64,000 nucleotides of DNA from a virus: positions 1-64,000 of IMG/VR virus record IMGVR_UViG_3300041411_000085; one strand, written 5' to 3'. Made by a program: the position numbers and the translations under genes. Positions 1,304 through 46,381 of this stretch are shown here, piece by piece (positions within the stretch are counted from its first letter, which is position 1; each line of letters opens with the position of its first letter). A model generated the notes under the pieces. That model saw only the letters and a list, made by a program, of their open reading frames with translations. It did not search any database and was not told where the DNA came from.

Positions 1304-2083
1304 TTACGCCTCCTTTTTGAATTCTTGAAGCCAGCGTTCATCGTTTGATGGCATCCAGTCAGAAATAAATAACTTAAACATACTTCTGACTACACTTGCG
1401 CTGATATTAAATTGCTTGCCAATTTTATAAGCAGACAAGCCCGATTCCCATAAACCACGTACATCTTCAGCAAAAGACCACGCTGCGTATGGAGTAGGCT
1501 TTCTAAACCAAGGGAGAATATTCAATCTAGCCTCAGACATCTTATTCTTCTGGTCCTCTGTCCTAATTTGACCTCTGACTTTTTCGAGACGTTTGTCAAT
1601 AGTTTCTTGGGATTGTTTCTTTCCAAGATTATTTAAACGAAACTGTTCTTTTGTTTCTTCAGAGTGCCTAAAACCAGCTCGGGTTGCGGAAGATCTTTCA
1701 ACACTCTCTTTAGAACGAGTCTTACCCTTCCAAATTTTGGAAATCTTTTCTTTAGACTCGTCTGAATGTTTAAATCCTAACTTTGATGGAGGCTTAGATC
1801 CACCAATAGCAATATTCCAACCTATACTTTTAGTAGGACGAAGTTTATTTTCAATATCGTAAGCGTACTCTTCATCTGAAATCAGAACGGTTTTTACAAT
1901 CAGGTTTTCTGCCCCGACTTTCCTCATAACATTATAAAGATACGAAGATTTACTGTTAACAACTTTGGAAGCCCTGATATGCTCTGCGTACCGCTCTTGA
2001 GCTGTCTTCGAAGTTACACCAATATACCCTTGAGAGAACATATCGGTGTGTTCGGGGGAATGAATCCAATAAACTTCCACCAT
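1304..2083 (-). CDS. GIY-YIG homing endonuclease with NUMOD3 repeats
   Basis: VYWI...GYIGVT...R...H...E...GWN catalytic pattern, plus repeated HSxEsKxKis-type NUMOD3 units. Confidence 0.85.
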   Translation of the reverse strand: MVEVYWIHSPEHTDMFSQGYIGVTSKTAQERYAEHIRASKVVNSKSSYLYNVMRKVGAENLIVKTVLISDEEYAYDIENKLRPTKSIGWNIAIGGSKPPSKLGFKHSDESKEKISKIWKGKTRSKESVERSSATRAGFRHSEETKEQFRLNNLGKKQSQETIDKRLEKVRGQIRTEDQKNKMSEARLNILPWFRKPTPYAAWSFAEDVRGLWESGLSAYKIGKQFNISASVVRSMFKLFISDWMPSNDERWLQEFKKEA

Positions 2084-3584: not shown

Positions 3585-5093
3585 CTATTGGTTAAAGGGG
3601 TTTGATCTGGTTAAATTTGCAGACATTAAACCGGAAGTAAAGTTAGGGATGTTAATAGATTGAGCAAGAATAGACACACAGTCCGCTAGGCTGTCGACGA
3701 CATCATCGTGGCCTGATTCTCCAGACTTTCGAAGTCCTGTAAAGGCCTCTAACTCACGATAAACGAAGTTCAAATCATTCTGAATTTTGTTTTCATGGTC
3801 AGTCCCGCAGTTCTTCAAGAAGATAACGTGACCATTCTGTGCTAATGAACTTACAGGGCGAAATCTATCAAGCTTGCTCTTCGTAGTAGATAGCGTACGA
3901 ACTCTAAAACCAGCCTCTGATATTTCCCTTGTAAGAATACCTGTAGAAGCTTTCGCAGCAGCACCCGGATCAAGAGGTAGAATAACATCTACATCATAAC
4001 CATCCGACCTTGCATTATTAAGGATAAACTCTTTCCAATCACCAAAACGAATACGAGTACGCTGCACATCATGTACAAAGTAACTGCCATTTTTGAGTTT
4101 TGATACTTTACAAGTTGCCGTGTAATCTGGCGAATTATTGGCATCAGATTTAAGCGTAGATGCTAGGTCATAACTACGAACGGTTTTTACAATCTCAGAT
4201 TTAGGTGGTTCTTCAATAGCTTCGGTACACCAGCTACGCAGAAAGTGTGTCGAGGACTGTTCGCGAGCGTTCCAGTCGCCCAAAAGCAAGCGTCTGCGTT
4301 CAATATCTGGCATAGCTTCGAGCGAAGACAAATATTCTGGTTGATTTTCCATGAGCCATGGATTATCGTAGATTGTACCAAGGATAACTTGGAAGCTTAG
4401 TGGGCGTACTTGTTTAGGATGGTCAATTGGTAGATTAGGATTACCATATTTAACAACCATCTCTTCTCTTGAGTCGCCCCAGAAGATCAAACCTTCACGG
4501 CGAAGAATCCAACGAACTCTGCCATTCTTTCCAGGGTCCGGCAGACCAGCATTAGGGTGCTCATCGTCGTACAGCCACCACTTAACCCAGTCATAAAGAA
4601 ATGAATCTGGGTCGGGGTTACAACTTAACCAAATAGATGGATCAAGTTTAGCCTTTGTACGAAGTCGAGAAATCAACCACCAAATATGTTTTTCATCTGC
4701 GTGCGTACATTCATCAAAAAACACATTTGAGAGTTCTAACCCATGGTATAACTGCCCAGCACTATCGTTTTCATAATGAGAGAACGATACGGAAGACCCC
4801 GAACTGAAGACAATTCGCTGATCTTTTAGTTTAATCTTAATATCATCTACTTGCGAGTATAGATGAACAGCAGCATCAAACAAACCGCCACTTTTCATAA
4901 TCGCAGTAGAGTTTTTACGAATGCAAAACCCCCGGTAAAGAGGGTCATTCATCCATCTCAAGTGTCTCATTAATCCAATGTGGCTCTTCGAAGAGCCGGC
5001 AGCCCCACCCGCTACCAAAATTCTTGAAGTAGAATTGAGGTATTGGGCTTGAAATTTTGACTGTGGGCCAATAATTACTTCTTCTTCACTCAT
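3585..5093 (-). CDS. terL: Terminase large subunit
   Basis: GPQ..FQ adenine motif, Walker A GGAAGSSKS, Walker B VFFDE, SCNP coupling motif, and nuclease acidic residues YDLA, PDYTA, HDDVVD. Confidence 0.95.
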   Translation of the reverse strand: MSEEEVIIGPQSKFQAQYLNSTSRILVAGGAAGSSKSHIGLMRHLRWMNDPLYRGFCIRKNSTAIMKSGGLFDAAVHLYSQVDDIKIKLKDQRIVFSSGSSVSFSHYENDSAGQLYHGLELSNVFFDECTHADEKHIWWLISRLRTKAKLDPSIWLSCNPDPDSFLYDWVKWWLYDDEHPNAGLPDPGKNGRVRWILRREGLIFWGDSREEMVVKYGNPNLPIDHPKQVRPLSFQVILGTIYDNPWLMENQPEYLSSLEAMPDIERRRLLLGDWNAREQSSTHFLRSWCTEAIEEPPKSEIVKTVRSYDLASTLKSDANNSPDYTATCKVSKLKNGSYFVHDVQRTRIRFGDWKEFILNNARSDGYDVDVILPLDPGAAAKASTGILTREISEAGFRVRTLSTTKSKLDRFRPVSSLAQNGHVIFLKNCGTDHENKIQNDLNFVYRELEAFTGLRKSGESGHDDVVDSLADCVSILAQSINIPNFTSGLMSANLTRSNPFNQ

Positions 5094-5980
5094 TAAGTTC
5101 CCTCACTATGAAATTCCATCCACTCCTTATCGTAATGAGGAATCCAACCTTCATGAAACATCTCTACAAGCGTAGTAAAATGATATTTCTTATATTCTAA
5201 GTTTTCTACTTTTGAGCAAATTGTTGCAAAAGAATAATGTCCGGGTTTATTATTTTCAATCCAGATATTATAATAATTTGCAGCCATTGCCCATACTCTC
5301 GCTCTTTCTGGCCTAGACATACAACTCTTTTGCCAAGGTCGCAAGGATTTTTGATAAGCAGATGTTGCCTCTAATACGTGAGGAGGCATTACCTTACCTT
5401 TATTTGCCTTCGAAATATTCTGTTTGTGCTCTTCTGATATCGGCCTTCCACGAAAGAAATCACCGATCTTTTTACGAGCTTCTTCTGGAACAGTCCAACC
5501 GTCTGCAATAATTTGTTGACGCTTTTCACTAATTCTCTTAGAAGTTTCAGCGGATCGTTTTTGTCCTGTCTGCTTTAAACGACCTTTCTCAATAGACTCT
5601 TCAGAACGCTTGTGTCCAGTTAACGTTGCACTAATCTTATCTTTAGTTTCTTGAGTAATAGTACGCTCACTCATAAACTTTGCTTTTGCAATCTTAGCTT
5701 TTTCAACATCTGACCAAGTTAAAAGATCTTTGTGTGCATTAACAGTACGAGTGTAGGCCCACATCAGACTATAGTTATCTGGATAAGCTTTCCACAAAAG
5801 TTTGTGGGCAATAACATGCTCTTTTGCTGTGAAGAGGACATAATTATCGTTAGTATTTTTACCGCCTAGACACTTTGGGATAATATGGTGTTTTTCAAAA
5901 TACCCATCTAAAGCTTTCTTATCTAGACCTCTAACAATACACTTAGCAACTAACTCATCATAAACTTTAATATAATTCAA
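5093..5980 (-). CDS. HNH homing endonuclease with NUMOD3 repeats
   Basis: EKHHIIPKCLGGKN...N...TAKEHVIAH HNH motif, followed by NUMOD3 repeats. Confidence 0.9.
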   Translation of the reverse strand: MNYIKVYDELVAKCIVRGLDKKALDGYFEKHHIIPKCLGGKNTNDNYVLFTAKEHVIAHKLLWKAYPDNYSLMWAYTRTVNAHKDLLTWSDVEKAKIAKAKFMSERTITQETKDKISATLTGHKRSEESIEKGRLKQTGQKRSAETSKRISEKRQQIIADGWTVPEEARKKIGDFFRGRPISEEHKQNISKANKGKVMPPHVLEATSAYQKSLRPWQKSCMSRPERARVWAMAANYYNIWIENNKPGHYSFATICSKVENLEYKKYHFTTLVEMFHEGWIPHYDKEWMEFHSEGT

Positions 5981-7509: not shown

Positions 7510-8898
7510 CTACAACCCTAAAGCAGCCGTATAAGCCGGGATAGCGTACCCAGCCAATGTTAGATAACCATTAGCCGTAGGGTGTGTATTATCCAGTGTC
7601 TCAAACCCTGTCCATGCAGTTGTGTCAATCCAAATAAGCTTAGGATTAGCTTTAGCATCCATCACAGCTTTCAGTGTGACATTTGCAGCATTAACCAGTT
7701 CTGGAGCACCAATGTTAGGCAGAATCCCACGACACAATACTTTGCCATATCCTTTAGCCAGCAGCTTATCAATACACAATCCATAATCAGTTTGTTCTGT
7801 GCTATCAATACCACCAGAGCCGCTATTACCACCTAATGCTAGGATTGCTACATCATTAGCTGTTACAGTCTTCATAGCTAAGGCAGCATCAATCATTACC
7901 TTACCACCACCTACTGTTTGCCCACTAACCCCATTCGTGCTACCAACAAATCCAAGGGCTGCTGCTACGTGCATTGTCTCAGTGTTTACTGAAGTAGCCC
8001 CCGGACCAGATCCGTAAGTGATGCTGTCACCAAACTGGTCAAGCTTTCTTCGGACACCAATATCAAGCAGTGTACTGTTACCACTTACAGCAAAATGTCC
8101 ACCAAGCTCTCTGAATGCACCACCATCCCACACATTGTATGTGGCTACAGAGCCATCACAAGGAATAACAATAGCCCGAGGAACACCATCAGCTTCAGGA
8201 GGGGCAGTATAGTAAGTGGGAATCCCACCATTCTTACTTACGCCAACTCTAGAGGATGTAGCTACAATCTTAGTGAATGCACCACGTATCTTGACAGAGC
8301 CTACGTTAGAACCACTGGTTACATTACTTGGTGCTTGTAGAGGCGGGGAATATCCTGAAACGTTCGGTGTGATCCCAGCAGAATACAAACCTGTAGCTGA
8401 ATCACTGCCTGCCTGAATCCAATTAGATGCTGCAACAAGTGCTGGAGGTTGACCTGTAACACTCAAGACATTTCCAGAGGATGCCACGTAAGGAGCATCA
8501 CCCATCTGCACAACCCACCTTACTTGAACAAAGTAGGTGGCGTGAGGAAGACCTGTGAAGAGTGTGTATACAGATGCAGAGTTAGGAGCACTGATGAAGT
8601 CACCACCGTCTACGCTCACTTGCATAGACCCAGCGTTATCTCCATAATCTGAAGGAGATGTAAGCAACGCTTGCGTCCCTGTAATCCATCCACACCATAA
8701 TGTCAAAGCACCGTATGCATATACTCTTGCAGCGTTCTTAGTTGTATTAAGAGAGCCTGCAAAGCCCGGAACAAACTGAGATGATGTGAAGGGTGCAGTG
8801 GTAGGGTCAGGAATTACGACGGAATGCTTTGGTTTTAAACTATGAAGAGGTCTTGAAATAGAACTGACAACTGAAGATGTAATATCATGAGTTATCAT
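7510..8898 (-). CDS. SGNH/GDSL hydrolase-domain protein (putative virion-associated esterase or deacetylase)
   Basis: Block I FGDSIT, block II NGVSG, block III LGGN and block V DNTHP, preceded by a beta-rich N-terminal region. Confidence 0.85.
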   Translation of the reverse strand: MITHDITSSVVSSISRPLHSLKPKHSVVIPDPTTAPFTSSQFVPGFAGSLNTTKNAARVYAYGALTLWCGWITGTQALLTSPSDYGDNAGSMQVSVDGGDFISAPNSASVYTLFTGLPHATYFVQVRWVVQMGDAPYVASSGNVLSVTGQPPALVAASNWIQAGSDSATGLYSAGITPNVSGYSPPLQAPSNVTSGSNVGSVKIRGAFTKIVATSSRVGVSKNGGIPTYYTAPPEADGVPRAIVIPCDGSVATYNVWDGGAFRELGGHFAVSGNSTLLDIGVRRKLDQFGDSITYGSGPGATSVNTETMHVAAALGFVGSTNGVSGQTVGGGKVMIDAALAMKTVTANDVAILALGGNSGSGGIDSTEQTDYGLCIDKLLAKGYGKVLCRGILPNIGAPELVNAANVTLKAVMDAKANPKLIWIDTTAWTGFETLDNTHPTANGYLTLAGYAIPAYTAALGL

Positions 8899-9405: not shown

Positions 9406-9819
9406 TTACTCGTCATCATCTTCTGTTGGATCAACATACACAAGAGACAACCGAGGTTTTAATTGCTGTTCAATTTCTTTAGGAGACTCTTCACCAGCTT
9501 CCAAAGAATCTTTAACTTCAAACTTAAGTTTGTTGTAAGAAATTTCTTCCGCATTCGCGGCCTTACTTACTGTTACCAAGCTATTCACAAGCCATTTACT
9601 TGCAGAGGCTTGTTCCGTATCAATAGCAACACCATCGATTTGCTTCTTGATATTCTCAAGAGCTTTGTCTTTCATTTCCAGAAGTTGTTCTTCCAGAATT
9701 CGAAGTTTACTTTTGGTGATTCGTTTACTATTACCGCCTGTAGTCTTGCGATTAGACTTAGGGCCGTTGAACCTAGTATCGGGACTAGGATTTTTATTTG
9801 TAGTTTTCTTAGTCGTCAT
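9406..9819 (-). CDS. Putative terminase small subunit
   Basis: Basic N-terminus with an NPSPDTRF...N..GG motif, helical core and acidic tail; upstream of terL on the same strand. Confidence 0.55.
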   Translation of the reverse strand: MTTKKTTNKNPSPDTRFNGPKSNRKTTGGNSKRITKSKLRILEEQLLEMKDKALENIKKQIDGVAIDTEQASASKWLVNSLVTVSKAANAEEISYNKLKFEVKDSLEAGEESPKEIEQQLKPRLSLVYVDPTEDDDE

Positions 9820-9841
9820 AATAGATTCCTTTGTAAATTAA

Positions 9842-10350
9842 TTCTTAATCATTCTGGCAAGACTACTTGCAATAATATCAAAGGATAACAAAATGATTAA
9901 GAAATGACCCTGTTGTAAGCATGCTCTGCAAGGAGAGGTACATTGCACGCTATCAAGGTCAGAAAGATAACCTATGGAGGGGGATAGGCATCTTTAAGTG
10001 CTGGGAGGAGAGATGAACCAGCAGGAGAAGATAAGACTCATGTAGAATTTAGTTCTTATTGTCTTATCGGGTGAAACTTAGAATTAGTTCCGCATGTGCG
10101 GGAAAGTCCACGTTCTTCCAAACTCTATAACGTTACGGTTGTAGGACTGTCTTGCTCCGTATAACAACTCTTACCATTTCTGGCATTGGAAATTGGTATC
10201 GCCTAAGGCTTCAAAGGCCGTCACCTTATTTCTGGCTCAAGTATCCTTTTCAGGAAGTCCCTCACGGGGTAAATGTAGTGCCACCTACAAATTCTTTAGA
10301 AACCTTCGTATTCTTCATTCATAAATTTCTTCCTTTGCTTTATGACTTGA
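9842..10350 (-). ncRNA. Candidate long structured RNA or leader with C/U-rich (anti-SD) loops
   Basis: No credible long ORF. Many stems, with GNRA tetraloops on the minus strand (10244-10255, 10259-10268). Upstream TTGACA-17-GATGAT at 10359-10387. Confidence 0.55.
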
Positions 10351-10393
10351 TATATCTAATCATCGCATGTTTTTAACCATTTGTCAACACTTA

Positions 10394-10570
10394 TTATTCG
10401 TATTTAGGTAAAATAGTTTTATAGACACTAAAATCAGGGTCCGTTAGGCTTTCAAATGCCCATTCATTACGGAACACTTCCATACTATCTTCCAAATATT
10501 CTACTTCAATATCACATACACAATAGTTGTTAATACGCCCACATTGTGAGCAAAAGCAAATCTCGCCCAC
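10394..10570 (-). CDS. Small Cys-rich hypothetical protein (58 aa)
   Basis: Read by hand: MGEICFCSQCGRINNYCVCD...; GAGG SD before the GTG start. Confidence 0.5.
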   Translation of the reverse strand: MGEICFCSQCGRINNYCVCDIEVEYLEDSMEVFRNEWAFESLTDPDFSVYKTILPKYE

Positions 10571-10652
10571 TTGTGAGCCCTCTTAGTTAAGTTCCAAGTT
10601 GTTAGTAAAACACAATCGAACTCGTTCTGTCAAGTAAATCTGAAAATAAATA

Positions 10653-10841
10653 TTAAACACCATTTAAAATACTTTCAATCTCTTCAAAACAGATTGTCCT
10701 ATGTCCTGCACCATCATCACACCTAGTGATGAGTCCATACTCTTTGTTTTCAAGCGCATCCAAAAGAAATGCAAGCCTTTCAGAGTCTTTGATTAGAGCA
10801 TCTAGCTCGCGCTTGAATTTTACTGCGGTATGCTTGTTCAT
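10653..10841 (-). CDS. Hypothetical protein
   Basis: 62 aa, coupled to the upstream gene by an ATGA overlap. Confidence 0.6.
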   Translation of the reverse strand: MNKHTAVKFKRELDALIKDSERLAFLLDALENKEYGLITRCDDGAGHRTICFEEIESILNGV

Positions 10842-12199
10842 TTCTTATCCACCTTACAAAATGTTGTATCTCCCAATACTGTTTTCCATGCACTAAACAT
10901 GGCCTCTCTCAAATCATCTTCAGCAGAAGCCTTAACCAAACAACTATCGTGATAAGCCAGCACTGTATGTCCTTTAGATCCCATTGCACCAACAATACGC
11001 ATCATAATCTTACTGTCAATGTTTTGTAGGGTGATACCGGCATCTGAAAAGAAGTGCTCTGCAATGAAATCGTTATGTGTTTGCACAGCTTCAAGTACAG
11101 ATGAGTAATCGATATTGCCAACCATTGCATAAAACTCTTGATCTTCAATACTGTTCTGAGCACGATCAATCTTAACTTTATTGCCTAGTGTCCAAGCTGC
11201 ACTATTCTTGTCGTTAGAATTCATACCAATAAGAATAGCTAACTTAGCTAACTGCCGTACAGGATTATGAACCTTACCTGTAACAGCCTCCCATTGTTCT
11301 TTCATACGACCATCTACTTTGATAAATGAAAGATCAGCACCGTAAGGAGAGAAATCTTCGCCCATTACATCAAAGATACTAAATCCATCTGTATTATACA
11401 TCATCTGATAGCAGATACTTGGGTGGATAGATGAGTAATCTAATTCCACAACTGGTTCACCATCAATCATTAGAGAAGATGCTCGGATGTGCTGCGGTAG
11501 GAGTTGAACACCACCGCCTAGTGTATAGAGACGACCACCACTTTCTAGATCACCACTAAAGATACGGCGGTATGCAACATCAGCAATCGGACGACCATCA
11601 AATGTAATTGATGCACCAGCCAACATATCATTCATACTCTTAACCTCACTCTTAATATCTTTAAATCCTTTATGACCTCGTGTTGGCATCATTTCTTTTG
11701 TCTCACGATCCCGAATGATAGCTAGATCATTATCTTCAAGCTCTTTCCATAGGTTATAAGAAGTATTAACATTTTCCCACATATCTCCTGTCCTCTTTTT
11801 AAATATCATACACGAAGGCACAGATTCATCTGGAACCAGAACTCCTTTATTCATCTTCCAAGATTTTACATACCCTTTATAAAGGTCAATATAACCCTTG
11901 GCTTCAAGGAAGTCAACAAGAGATTTAACTTTCCTGTATCCAATGCCTTGCTTTGACTTAGTGTATGCGTGTATGTCTAGACTGAAGACAATACCTTTAG
12001 CACTCTTCTTGACAGCGCGAGCTGAGTTAGACACCCACCACCTCACTGCATCTTCCCATTTGTAGTTGGTATGCTCCATCACTTGATCTACTATCTTCTT
12101 ATAGTATTTAGATTCATGGTAATAGATATAACTTCTTACACACCCAAGGTTAACAGAGTAAGCTTGATGTTCTGTCATGTTACTTAATTCATAGATCAA
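10838..12199 (-). CDS. PolA/T7-RNAP superfamily polymerase-like protein (TV-Pol-like), copy 1
   Basis: YRRIF..GGRLY, motif A VELDYSSIHP, motif B RQLAKL, LQNIDS and motif C YHDSCLV; winged-helix-like N-terminus. Confidence 0.7.
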   Translation of the reverse strand: MIYELSNMTEHQAYSVNLGCVRSYIYYHESKYYKKIVDQVMEHTNYKWEDAVRWWVSNSARAVKKSAKGIVFSLDIHAYTKSKQGIGYRKVKSLVDFLEAKGYIDLYKGYVKSWKMNKGVLVPDESVPSCMIFKKRTGDMWENVNTSYNLWKELEDNDLAIIRDRETKEMMPTRGHKGFKDIKSEVKSMNDMLAGASITFDGRPIADVAYRRIFSGDLESGGRLYTLGGGVQLLPQHIRASSLMIDGEPVVELDYSSIHPSICYQMMYNTDGFSIFDVMGEDFSPYGADLSFIKVDGRMKEQWEAVTGKVHNPVRQLAKLAILIGMNSNDKNSAAWTLGNKVKIDRAQNSIEDQEFYAMVGNIDYSSVLEAVQTHNDFIAEHFFSDAGITLQNIDSKIMMRIVGAMGSKGHTVLAYHDSCLVKASAEDDLREAMFSAWKTVLGDTTFCKVDKK

Positions 12200-45061: not shown

Positions 45062-46381
45062 TCACGCCAAGATTTTACTTTCTTGGAGCACATTAGCATC
45101 CTTCCAAGACATTTTCAAGGGGATTAATGATGCAATACCAAATTCCTCCCTAAAAGCGTCACCCATAGCATTCTCCAAGAGGCCCACGTCAGACATTCTG
45201 ACCACAAAACTGTCATGGATTGGCAGGATTGGCTTCATTTCATCTACAAATTTCTCAATTACTCGTTGAGCGAGGTACGAATCTGCGTTCTGTAGTGCTA
45301 GCCCAAACGAATCATCCCGGCAATAGCAAGGAATAAAGTCAGGAGTCATACTGTAAATGTGTTCGCGGGCTTTCTTACCAGTGTTTAGGCTCTTATCAAT
45401 GCTCCAACCTTGAGATTTAAATTTAGTAATCTCTTTGTTGATTGCACGATCAGCGCTATCTTCAGTTTTGGAGTTAAACAGAATGTTAATAGACAATTTA
45501 ATCAGTTCACGATGGTCATCATTCTGTAACCGCTCAGGTAGAATATCCATGTACACGTCAAGCGGTAGGTTCTCCATACTGATCTGTTCCATCAAGCTGG
45601 CAAGCCTGTAGTGAAGATTAGAGAAATCAATTTCCACAACCTGTTCACCATTGATAGTGATATCAAGGCGTGCCTTAGTCTTCTTGTGTTTAATCTTCAA
45701 AGCGTCAGAATGAAAGTAACGCCCACCGTGTTCAAAGTCTTTATTAAAGATACGAGAGTAGATGTTAGTCATAACATTACCTTCGCCATCTTTAATATCA
45801 TGCAATTCATTAATACGGTTAAGTTTCTCTACAACCTTACGCGCAGCTTTGATATTCTTATTATCTTGATAGTCAATAGCTTTACCATACTCGTTACGGA
45901 GGATGATTGTTTGAAGGCTGGCATTGTAAGCAGCAATAGCACTCTGAACCTCTTCATCTTTAGAACAAAATTCAGCAACAAAGGCTTCAGATGGTGTGAT
46001 GTAAGACATGATTCTCTTTTCCTTATCTATATGTGCTTTGCCAATGAAATTGTGAATATATCCTATTTCTTCAAGCACTGCAATACATTTCATCAGACGA
46101 TGGGCTGTTATTCCCCGTCTGTCATACTTAGTTTTGATTGGTGAGTGGTTGACCTTATCTCTTGAGTATAGAAGATTCTCATTCTTCTTAATGCAAGCAA
46201 TCAGATTCATAACCACTACACCACTTAATTCCTTATCTACAATAGCTTCTATATGTCTAAGCTTATTAACTACTGACTTAGATAGATTAATACTGTAGGT
46301 AAGCAATCTACTCCTTGTATTCTTCTCTTCTCCTTCCTCTTCTATCACTATTCTACTCCTTCCTCTTCCTCTTCTGTTCAT
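45062..46381 (-). CDS. PolA/T7-RNAP superfamily polymerase-like protein (TV-Pol-like), copy 2; true start may be the TTG after AGGAG near 46306
   Basis: YSRIF..GGRYF, motif A VEIDFSNLHY, motif B RELIKL, LQNADS and motif C PIHDSFVV; paralogue of 10838-12199. Confidence 0.7.
   Translation of the reverse strand: MNRRGRGRSRIVIEEEGEEKNTRSRLLTYSINLSKSVVNKLRHIEAIVDKELSGVVVMNLIACIKKNENLLYSRDKVNHSPIKTKYDRRGITAHRLMKCIAVLEEIGYIHNFIGKAHIDKEKRIMSYITPSEAFVAEFCSKDEEVQSAIAAYNASLQTIILRNEYGKAIDYQDNKNIKAARKVVEKLNRINELHDIKDGEGNVMTNIYSRIFNKDFEHGGRYFHSDALKIKHKKTKARLDITINGEQVVEIDFSNLHYRLASLMEQISMENLPLDVYMDILPERLQNDDHRELIKLSINILFNSKTEDSADRAINKEITKFKSQGWSIDKSLNTGKKAREHIYSMTPDFIPCYCRDDSFGLALQNADSYLAQRVIEKFVDEMKPILPIHDSFVVRMSDVGLLENAMGDAFREEFGIASLIPLKMSWKDANVLQESKILA

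Follow-up and report, generated by a model that had tools for sequence, protein, structure and literature searches.

What is encoded in the gap between two minus-strand genes of a rhizosphere phage, immediately upstream of its packaging block? The DNA analyzed here (the window) is a 64,000-nucleotide (nt) part of the IMG/VR record IMGVR_UViG_3300041411_000085, a phage genome of 87,003 bp that is estimated to be 99% complete and derives from a rhizosphere metagenome. Positions 9820-10393 of the window contain no minus-strand open reading frame (ORF) of at least 40 codons and lie between a 58-amino-acid (aa) ORF upstream and a 137-aa ORF downstream, both on the minus strand. The initial annotation placed in this gap a structured RNA of about 500 nt with loops complementary to Shine-Dalgarno (SD) sequences. 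As judged from folding and sequence comparison, the minus strand at positions 9841-10078 specifies a phage non-coding RNA of approximately 240 nt that is conserved, highly structured, and made up of five helices (the module).

The minimum free energy (MFE) of positions 9841-10078 on the minus strand is -71.0 kcal/mol versus -42.3 kcal/mol in shuffled sequences (z -7.04), and 0 of 200 shuffles are equally stable. For positions 10079-10350 on the same strand, a z-score of -1.0 was obtained, with 30 of 200 shuffles equally stable. The structured unit was therefore set at 238 nt, the 3' part of the region; the size of about 500 nt is not upheld, the remainder being poorly conserved and folding like its shuffles. 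Both GNRA hairpins that had been cited for the minus strand exist, but they are located in 10079-10350, outside the module, and fold no better than chance. The three hairpins predicted at 9927-9947, 9963-9995, and 9999-10023 are all present at these coordinates, as are the flanking stems (a 12-bp inverted repeat at 9842-9853/9892-9903 and an 8-bp inverted repeat at 10030-10037/10061-10068) and the linker UUCUCC.

The module (9841-10078, minus strand) was delimited by the z-score of its fold, by its score in the covariance model described below, and by covariation. It opens with a 5' single strand, AGUUUCACCC (10069-10078), which is nearly invariant in the alignment columns and unpaired with a probability of 0.99. 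Helix H0 (10030-10068; covariation helices 1-2) consists of an 8-bp stem and a small apical AAGAA/UUCU helix and is followed by the linker UUCUCC (10024-10029), which is unpaired in the ensemble fold and moderately conserved in the alignment. H1 (9999-10023; helix 3) has a 6-bp stem and the loop UUCAUCUCUCCUC at 10005-10017. The stem of H2 (9963-9995; helices 4-5) opens with a conserved AAAGA/UCUUU and carries the loop CCCCCUCC at 9976-9983. H3 (9905-9961; helices 6-8) has a long interrupted stem and the best-conserved loop, CCUCUCCU at 9931-9938 as placed by the fold model; its apical hairpin is the one at 9927-9947. H4 (9842-9903; helices 9-11) is a three-way junction on the conserved base UUUCUUAA/UUAAGAAA. 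H4 corresponds to the 12-bp inverted repeat, and its three-way junction is supported by covariation. The linkers between H2, H3, and H4 are only 0-1 nt long.

Relatives were collected using the 137-aa protein as the query, alone and then as an alignment, which provided 37 IMG/VR loci. The intergenic region has almost no nucleotide similarity to these relatives by blastn; the word CTCTCCT clusters upstream of the 137-aa gene in most of the 37 loci. Alignments made using MAFFT put H1-H3 out of register, and RNAalifold applied to one of them recovered H4 only. Because the stems were misaligned, a covariance model (R1) was built using only the sequence in the window and the MFE structure of that sequence, and the relatives were aligned to R1 using Infernal. 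A single match of 304 bits is detected for R1 on the window and on the whole 87-kb genome. Full-length matches were obtained for 21 of the 37 loci. A motif scan of IMG/VR provided 41 further-examined loci with 24 matches, 11 of which are in contigs without a copy found earlier. The total for R1 is 33 IMG/VR records, the source phage included. At least nine matches appear among 80 listed metagenome-contig loci, several of them being contigs already in IMG/VR. The module is present once in each of six complete genomes (the source phage and five complete relatives).

Covariation was measured for 31 distinct sequences aligned to R1, namely the copy of the source phage and full-length copies from 30 other phage contigs. 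Standard pairs appear in 94.8% of 2033 cells, a share that is somewhat inflated by fitting the alignment to the R1 structure and against whose inflation independent single-sequence folds provide a guard. The corresponding values are 64.9% with the 3' letters shuffled and 39-43% with the partners slid by 1-3 columns. Changes on both sides are found for 65 of the 73 pairs, in 609 cells, and 0 of 500 shuffles match any of the five covariation measures; a set of 23 rows agrees. Both sides change in 8 of 8 pairs of helix 1 and 3 of 4 pairs of helix 2 in H0, and compensatory changes appear in all 6 pairs of the H1 stem. A UA/AU swap occurs in H4 at alignment column 366/455 with a ratio of 17:13. When the modules of 23 relatives were each folded alone, all gave an H3-like hairpin with a CU-rich loop and the H4 junction, and most gave all five helices. 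The 5' hairpins differ in number or arrangement in the single folds of L013, L040, L041, and L044; L041 has a module-like layout by eye and in its single fold, yet it is not matched by R1. With an effect this large, and with folds made independently on single sequences, a genuinely conserved structure is the only reasonable reading.

The assignment of the RNA to the minus strand, as proposed initially, is supported in several ways. The z-score for 9841-10078 is -2.62 when the plus strand is read. On that strand, 135 G-U cells of the alignment become A-C mismatches, and the share of paired cells drops from 94.8% to 88.2%. The flanking genes are all on the minus strand, and the tRNA genes that abut the module in relatives are on the strand of the module. 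Taken together, the z-scores, the G-U cells, and the direction of the genes and tRNAs identify the minus strand as the functional one.

The loops of H1-H3 are unpaired and have CUCUCC(U) as their common core, similar to the CCUCC core in the anti-SD sequence of 16S rRNA. For the RNA of the window, the ensemble gives unpaired probabilities of 0.99-1.00 in the loops, the 5' tail, and the linker. The stems vary freely between relatives, and the loops stay constant. The sequence CUCC appears in the H1 loop of 30 of the 31 sequences, in the H2 loop of 30, and in the H3 loop of all 31; for CUCUCC the counts are 18 (H1), 24 (H2), and 28 (H3). The loops of H2 and H3 are 95-96% pyrimidine (96% for H2). 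A conserved unpaired C/U-rich motif in at least two hairpin loops, as in the class of small RNAs (sRNAs) that block SD sequences, is thus found in this RNA, and the initial expectation of exposed anti-SD-like loops conserved on covarying stems is borne out. The further claim that loop 1 is complementary to an SD sequence plus AUG was dropped, as CAU is absent from many H1 loops and is not conserved.

The module is located in the tRNA region of the relatives. In five of them (L019, L026, L033, L035, and L072), the first base of the module is also the final base of a tRNA gene, and the two share a strand. This is not so in the source phage, which has no tRNA gene in its whole genome and retains the module; relatives carry up to six tRNA genes beside it. 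Because the module starts at the tRNA 3' end in relatives, it can be read as a processed, stand-alone RNA, and it is probably a gene in its own right for an RNA that acquires its 5' end when a longer transcript is processed. The conserved AG/UUU start of the module fits the site preference of RNase E.

What we infer for the transcription, processing, targets, and effect of this RNA is the following. The RNA would be cut from a longer transcript, with its 5' end in relatives at the tRNA 3' processing site. In its most likely role, the loops would then base-pair with purine-rich SD sequences of the GGAGA(G) type, and this pairing would keep 30S subunits away from GGAGA(G) ribosome-binding sites. 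As targets, the non-late mRNAs of the phage, host mRNAs, or both are likely, and translation would be shifted toward mRNAs with other ribosome-binding sites. The chances that the RNA sequesters GGAGA(G)-type SD sites by loop pairing appear to us to be evenly balanced.

The loops are complementary to GGAGAG. Predicted duplex energies with AAGGAGAG are -10.6 kcal/mol for H1 and -10.4 kcal/mol for H3 versus -8.4 kcal/mol for the motif of the 16S tail. With AAGGAGG the order is reversed, at -7.1 to -7.5 kcal/mol for the loops versus -10.7 kcal/mol for the 16S-tail motif. In the source genome, GGAGA precedes the start codon of an ORF of 45 or more codons 2 times within the late block and 16 times within each of the other three blocks; GGAGG is evenly distributed over the same four blocks (5, 4, 3, and 4). 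These are word counts that do not depend on gene calls. Using crude gene calls, GGAGA was found at 3 of 38 late genes versus 41 of 125 others in the source genome (Fisher p 0.0017). For the six module-bearing genomes pooled, GGAGA makes up 37 of 92 GGAG sites in the late class versus 283 of 462 in the other class (p 3e-4). It is in the base after GGAGA that carriers and non-carriers differ: the share of GGAGAG among GGAGA sites is 79/277 in the six carriers versus 21/214 in four phages without the module (p 2.5e-7), a difference that suggests a lead and is not proof. The G+C content is 41.0% for vB_PsaM_M1, one of these four, and 40.8% for the source phage.

Several results weigh against sequestration of this kind. 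The contrast between late and other genes is heterogeneous among the six genomes: it reaches nominal significance only in G000 (2/13 versus 48/80, p 0.005) and G002 (5/18 versus 49/80, p 0.017), G005 has the same lean at only p 0.06 (3/9 versus 51/74), and no difference appears in G001, G003, and G004 (11/19 versus 44/73, 9/19 versus 51/86, and 7/14 versus 40/69; p 0.44 to 1). The switch from early to late expression that was proposed initially is consistent with the block counts in the source genome, but the relatives are mixed and the proposal is suggestive only. The GGAGA bias is not specific to carriers of the module, with GGAGA/GGAGG ratios of 2.9-5.1 in carriers, 5.2 in vB_PpS_SYP, and 2.1 in phiPMW; among the four phages without the module, the ratio is low only in M1 (0.9) and PAK_P3 (0.5). 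The six carrier genomes are close kin, so their GGAGAG samples are not independent, and the gene starts were obtained from a crude rule for ORFs and ribosome-binding sites with no gene finder. CU-rich loops complement any SD sequence, and enrichment of the best duplexes at ribosome-binding sites is trivially expected. The top duplex sites in the genome were discarded as evidence because of this trivial enrichment and because the loop strings used had included stem bases.

A bolder form of the sequestration proposal is put forward tentatively, as a possibility that the present data would accommodate. The RNA would be a competitor of the ribosomal anti-SD tail with shifted specificity (UCUCC/CUCUCC in place of CCUCC) and would act as a temporal translation switch made of RNA only. 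Released from a tRNA or late transcript, it would out-compete the 30S subunit for the AAGGAGAG-type sites that dominate non-late genes and leave GGAGG- or AAGGA-type sites free. In phage T4, the RegB endoribonuclease inactivates early mRNAs by acting on GGAG in SD sequences. RegB is a protein nuclease and not an RNA, and the logical step is the same; if the proposal is true, sequestration by RNA would do what RegB does by cleavage, and a virus would partition its mRNAs into translation classes by SD subtype. Sequestration of an SD subclass would mean that phages time protein synthesis via RNA at the step of ribosome recruitment and would provide a compact part for SD-class-specific translational control.

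The Cuckoo/CcsR RNAs of Alphaproteobacteria are described, in the accessible text, as two to four hairpins in a row that bear CCUCCUCCC in their loops, with no multiloops (PMC4615179); RNase E matures them, and their partner is a DUF1127 protein (PMC4615179, PMC8034643). The phage RNA shares with Cuckoo/CcsR/alpha-r14 (NfeR1) the adjacent hairpins with variable stems, each displaying one conserved pyrimidine loop motif that resembles the anti-SD sequence. A longer precursor transcript, as for CcsR, is proposed for the phage RNA as well; RNase E cleaves CcsR1 at GUUUCC (PMC8034643), and the phage module begins with AGUUUCACC. The differences are considerable. The loop word of the phage RNA is CUCUCC(U) or CCUCUCCU, and the exact CCUCCUCCC appears in no loop of the 31 sequences. 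The phage RNA has the additional H0 and H4, the latter being a multiloop. Its carrier is a lytic phage with a probable Pseudomonas host and not an alphaproteobacterial chromosome, and no DUF1127 gene was detected among the neighbors using Pfam.

Rfam 15 was searched with the whole window at gathering thresholds, and no match was obtained. The E-value search of 9700-10700 gave only chance-level matches (ar14 at 18.2 bits, ToxI at 16.6 bits, and others), and Rfam on the loci of ten relatives gave only tRNAs. The best match, ar14 (RF02344), lies exactly over H1-H3 (9914-10025(-)) with an E-value of 0.69, and its score falls far below the gathering score of 58.8 that members reach. The Rfam check suggested in the initial annotation therefore assigns the RNA to no family. 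Every criterion applied for membership in Cuckoo/ar14 gave a negative answer, and on this comparison the relationship is one of functional analogy.

In the RNAIII of Staphylococcus aureus, UCCC appears in three loops that are thought to make the first contact with target ribosome-binding sites (PMC4615179, as far as its accessible text goes). The phage RNA resembles RNAIII and other SD-blocking sRNAs with C-rich loops in presenting a C/U-rich motif in several loops; unlike RNAIII it has no coding part, and there is no homology in sequence or structure between the two. The sRNA1 and sRNA2 of PAK_P3 are reported in the accessible text to be abundant late in infection with no function known (PMC4933390). 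Like these and the T4 band C/D RNAs, the module is an RNA of a virulent phage that is found beside tRNA genes and upstream of packaging genes. PAK_P3 sRNA1 and sRNA2 were considered as homologues and rejected, as R1 has no match in PAK_P3 and their folds are without CU-rich loops; sRNA2 carries a tRNA-like T-arm word. If sequestration is true, it would extend the principle of Cuckoo and RNAIII from cellular stress regulators to viruses.

The position of the module is a further point against an RNA acting in trans. Of 22 loci, 16 have the module ending no more than ~70 nt from the 137-aa gene, and no minus-strand terminator-like site was found between them in the window. For these two reasons a cis-acting role as the 5' leader of the late packaging/structural operon deserves consideration, and we judge it rather unlikely. 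Such a leader would make the mRNA more stable or present single-stranded, pyrimidine-rich stretches to ribosomal protein S1, for which binding to pyrimidine-rich loops is a possibility, and would boost a first gene with a weak SD sequence. The SD sequence of the 137-aa gene is indeed weak (AGGAA or AGGUA type), and between the 3' edge of the module and the start codon the sequence is conserved in close relatives. The gap is, however, 108-1169 nt in the other 6 of 22 loci, and in L037 a tRNA-Gln gene is interposed before the ORF that follows the module. At least five contigs (the pairs L087/L039, L072/L024, L079/L023, L071/L028, and L067/L020) carry their copy elsewhere, with none within 1.5 kb upstream of the 137-aa gene. 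The 62-nt H4 junction stands between the loops and the SD sequence. Three redundant loops and a 5' end fixed at tRNA junctions fit a processed RNA better than a leader.

The loops may instead be recognized by a protein. The RNA would then be a decoy that mimics the 3' tail of 16S rRNA and titrates a host or phage factor that recognizes the anti-SD sequence, for example S1, an assembly or hibernation factor, or a defense-system toxin that cleaves the anti-SD sequence. The loops share a CCUCC/CCUCCU-like core with 16S tails (PMC6288834, PMC6107199, in their accessible text), toxins that cut the anti-SD sequence are described in the accessible text of PMC12274833 and PMC12620021, and the compact H2-H3-H4 unit with joints of 0-1 nt resembles a scaffold displaying three copies of one epitope. 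We consider such a decoy unlikely. No candidate partner was found, the neighboring small ORFs having no Pfam or PHROG family, and the dominant word is CUCUCC and not the rRNA word CCUCC, which argues for tuning to a nucleic acid partner (GGAGAG) over mimicry.

The three to four copies of CTCTCCT, 32-45 bp apart and directly upstream of the packaging block, could also form a DNA-level array bound by terminase (pac-type) or another protein, a reading that is highly improbable. A site in duplex DNA has no need of selection on the pairing of unrelated stems, and two of the complete relatives fall in the class with direct terminal repeats, their copies of the module being ~27 and 28.7 kb from the contig ends. 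Barely credible is the plus-strand alternative raised in the initial annotation, in which AGGAG/GGA loops would form an RsmY/RsmZ/CsrB-like sponge for RsmA/CsrA, since the A(N)GGA-like words in the plus-strand loops and the use of Rsm sponges by Pseudomonas, the probable host genus, stand against the weaker fold (z -2.62 versus -7.04), the pairing lowered to 88.2% with loss of the G-U cells, the opposite strand of all flanking genes and abutting tRNAs, and the absence of any Rsm or Csr match in Rfam on either strand.

The distribution of the module was examined among cultured phages and databases. The closest cultured phages by terL are Pseudomonas phages: vB_PsaM_M1 (84% aa identity, labeled Ounavirinae), vB_PpS_SYP (65%), phiPMW (63%), and the PAK_P1/PAK_P3 group (~39%). 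On the basis of this kinship, the host is probably Pseudomonas. R1 on the whole genomes of vB_PsaM_M1, phiPMW, vB_PpS_SYP, and PAK_P3 showed that the module is absent from all four. No match was obtained by blastn of the window region and three other members versus 50,697 phage records, nor by R1 on 80 listed prokaryote-genome loci from a pattern scan. A wider search of a genome collection using R1 was also negative and is not relied on, as it missed 3 of 5 known members. Word searches of the open-access literature and the accessible text of a review of phage sRNAs (PMC12197685) provided no description of this RNA, which is no proof of absence.

The kind of RNA is known, namely an sRNA that displays anti-SD loops; the family, its size, its architecture, its tRNA-linked position, and its home in lytic phages are absent from Rfam and from the papers reached by the literature searches. 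Very little is known of the regulatory RNAs of virulent phages, and those described (T4 band C/D and PAK_P3 sRNA1/2) are still without a function. The module represents a large, strongly covarying RNA family outside Rfam with a testable surface of three anti-SD-like loops. The position of the family is fixed at the boundary between tRNAs and the late operon in a clade of phages of roughly 85-93 kb that are related to Pseudomonas phages.

Between the module and a promoter-like site is a non-conserved leader (10079-10358, minus strand; z -1.0), where the two GNRA hairpins are found. Outside the promoter stretch, blastn of this leader versus relatives gave short and weak matches only (39 nt with E 0.001 in L037; 23 nt with E 0.07 in L013/L002). 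The leader also contains a mini-ORF of eight codons (MNEEYEGF) at 10296-10322(-) with a good AAGGAAG site; the corresponding stretch of L006 differs. The sigma-70-like promoter candidate (10359-10387, minus strand), ~275 nt upstream of the module, consists of TTGACA, a 17-nt spacer, and GATGAT with TG, and was recognized by its match to the consensus. The identity of this stretch is 83% in L006 and ~69% in L043/L044. The TTGACA promoter of the initial annotation is thus found at 10387-10359, but promoter-like sites are not enriched in the stretch (3 found, 4.6 expected).

The 137-aa ORF (9406-9819, minus strand) is the first gene of the packaging/structural block. It had been called terS, which is not supported: no match was obtained using Pfam, including per-member Pfam scans of the alignment of its relatives, or PHROGs, none was found by tblastn versus cultured phages, and hhalign detected no likeness to the DUF5681 protein of PAK_P3. 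On the same strand it is followed by a 100-aa ORF, a GDSL-domain protein, two ORFs, a homing endonuclease, terL, portal, another endonuclease, and a prohead protease. The GDSL protein (7510-8898(-), 462 aa) has a C-terminal GDSL lipase/acylhydrolase domain (PF13472, E 3e-9). The homing-endonuclease genes at 5093-5980(-) and 1304-2083(-) flank terL and follow portal, respectively, and vB_PsaM_M1 is annotated likewise. Two paralogues of PHROG 4756 are present at 10838-12199(-) (453 aa) and 45062-46381(-) (439 aa); the homologue in vB_PsaM_M1 is annotated as "DNA polymerase".

Additional non-coding stretches were observed in relatives. An element with the words CUGACGAG and GGGAGCAAUGA recurs upstream of the module at L007:2430-2510, L018:930-1010, and L037:910-990; an E-value search of Rfam, hammerhead included, gave no match for L018 700-1300. 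In vB_PsaM_M1, an unannotated frame with an N-terminal basic stretch (L212:3973-4450(+)) lies opposite an annotated minus-strand hypothetical protein, and the strand may be mis-called in that record. A long non-coding stretch just upstream of the tRNA cluster, not present in the window, is near-identical in L006 (1900-2128) and vB_PsaM_M1 (L212:4450-5085); Rfam on L006 gave tRNAs only, and the shared stretch may be a second conserved RNA.

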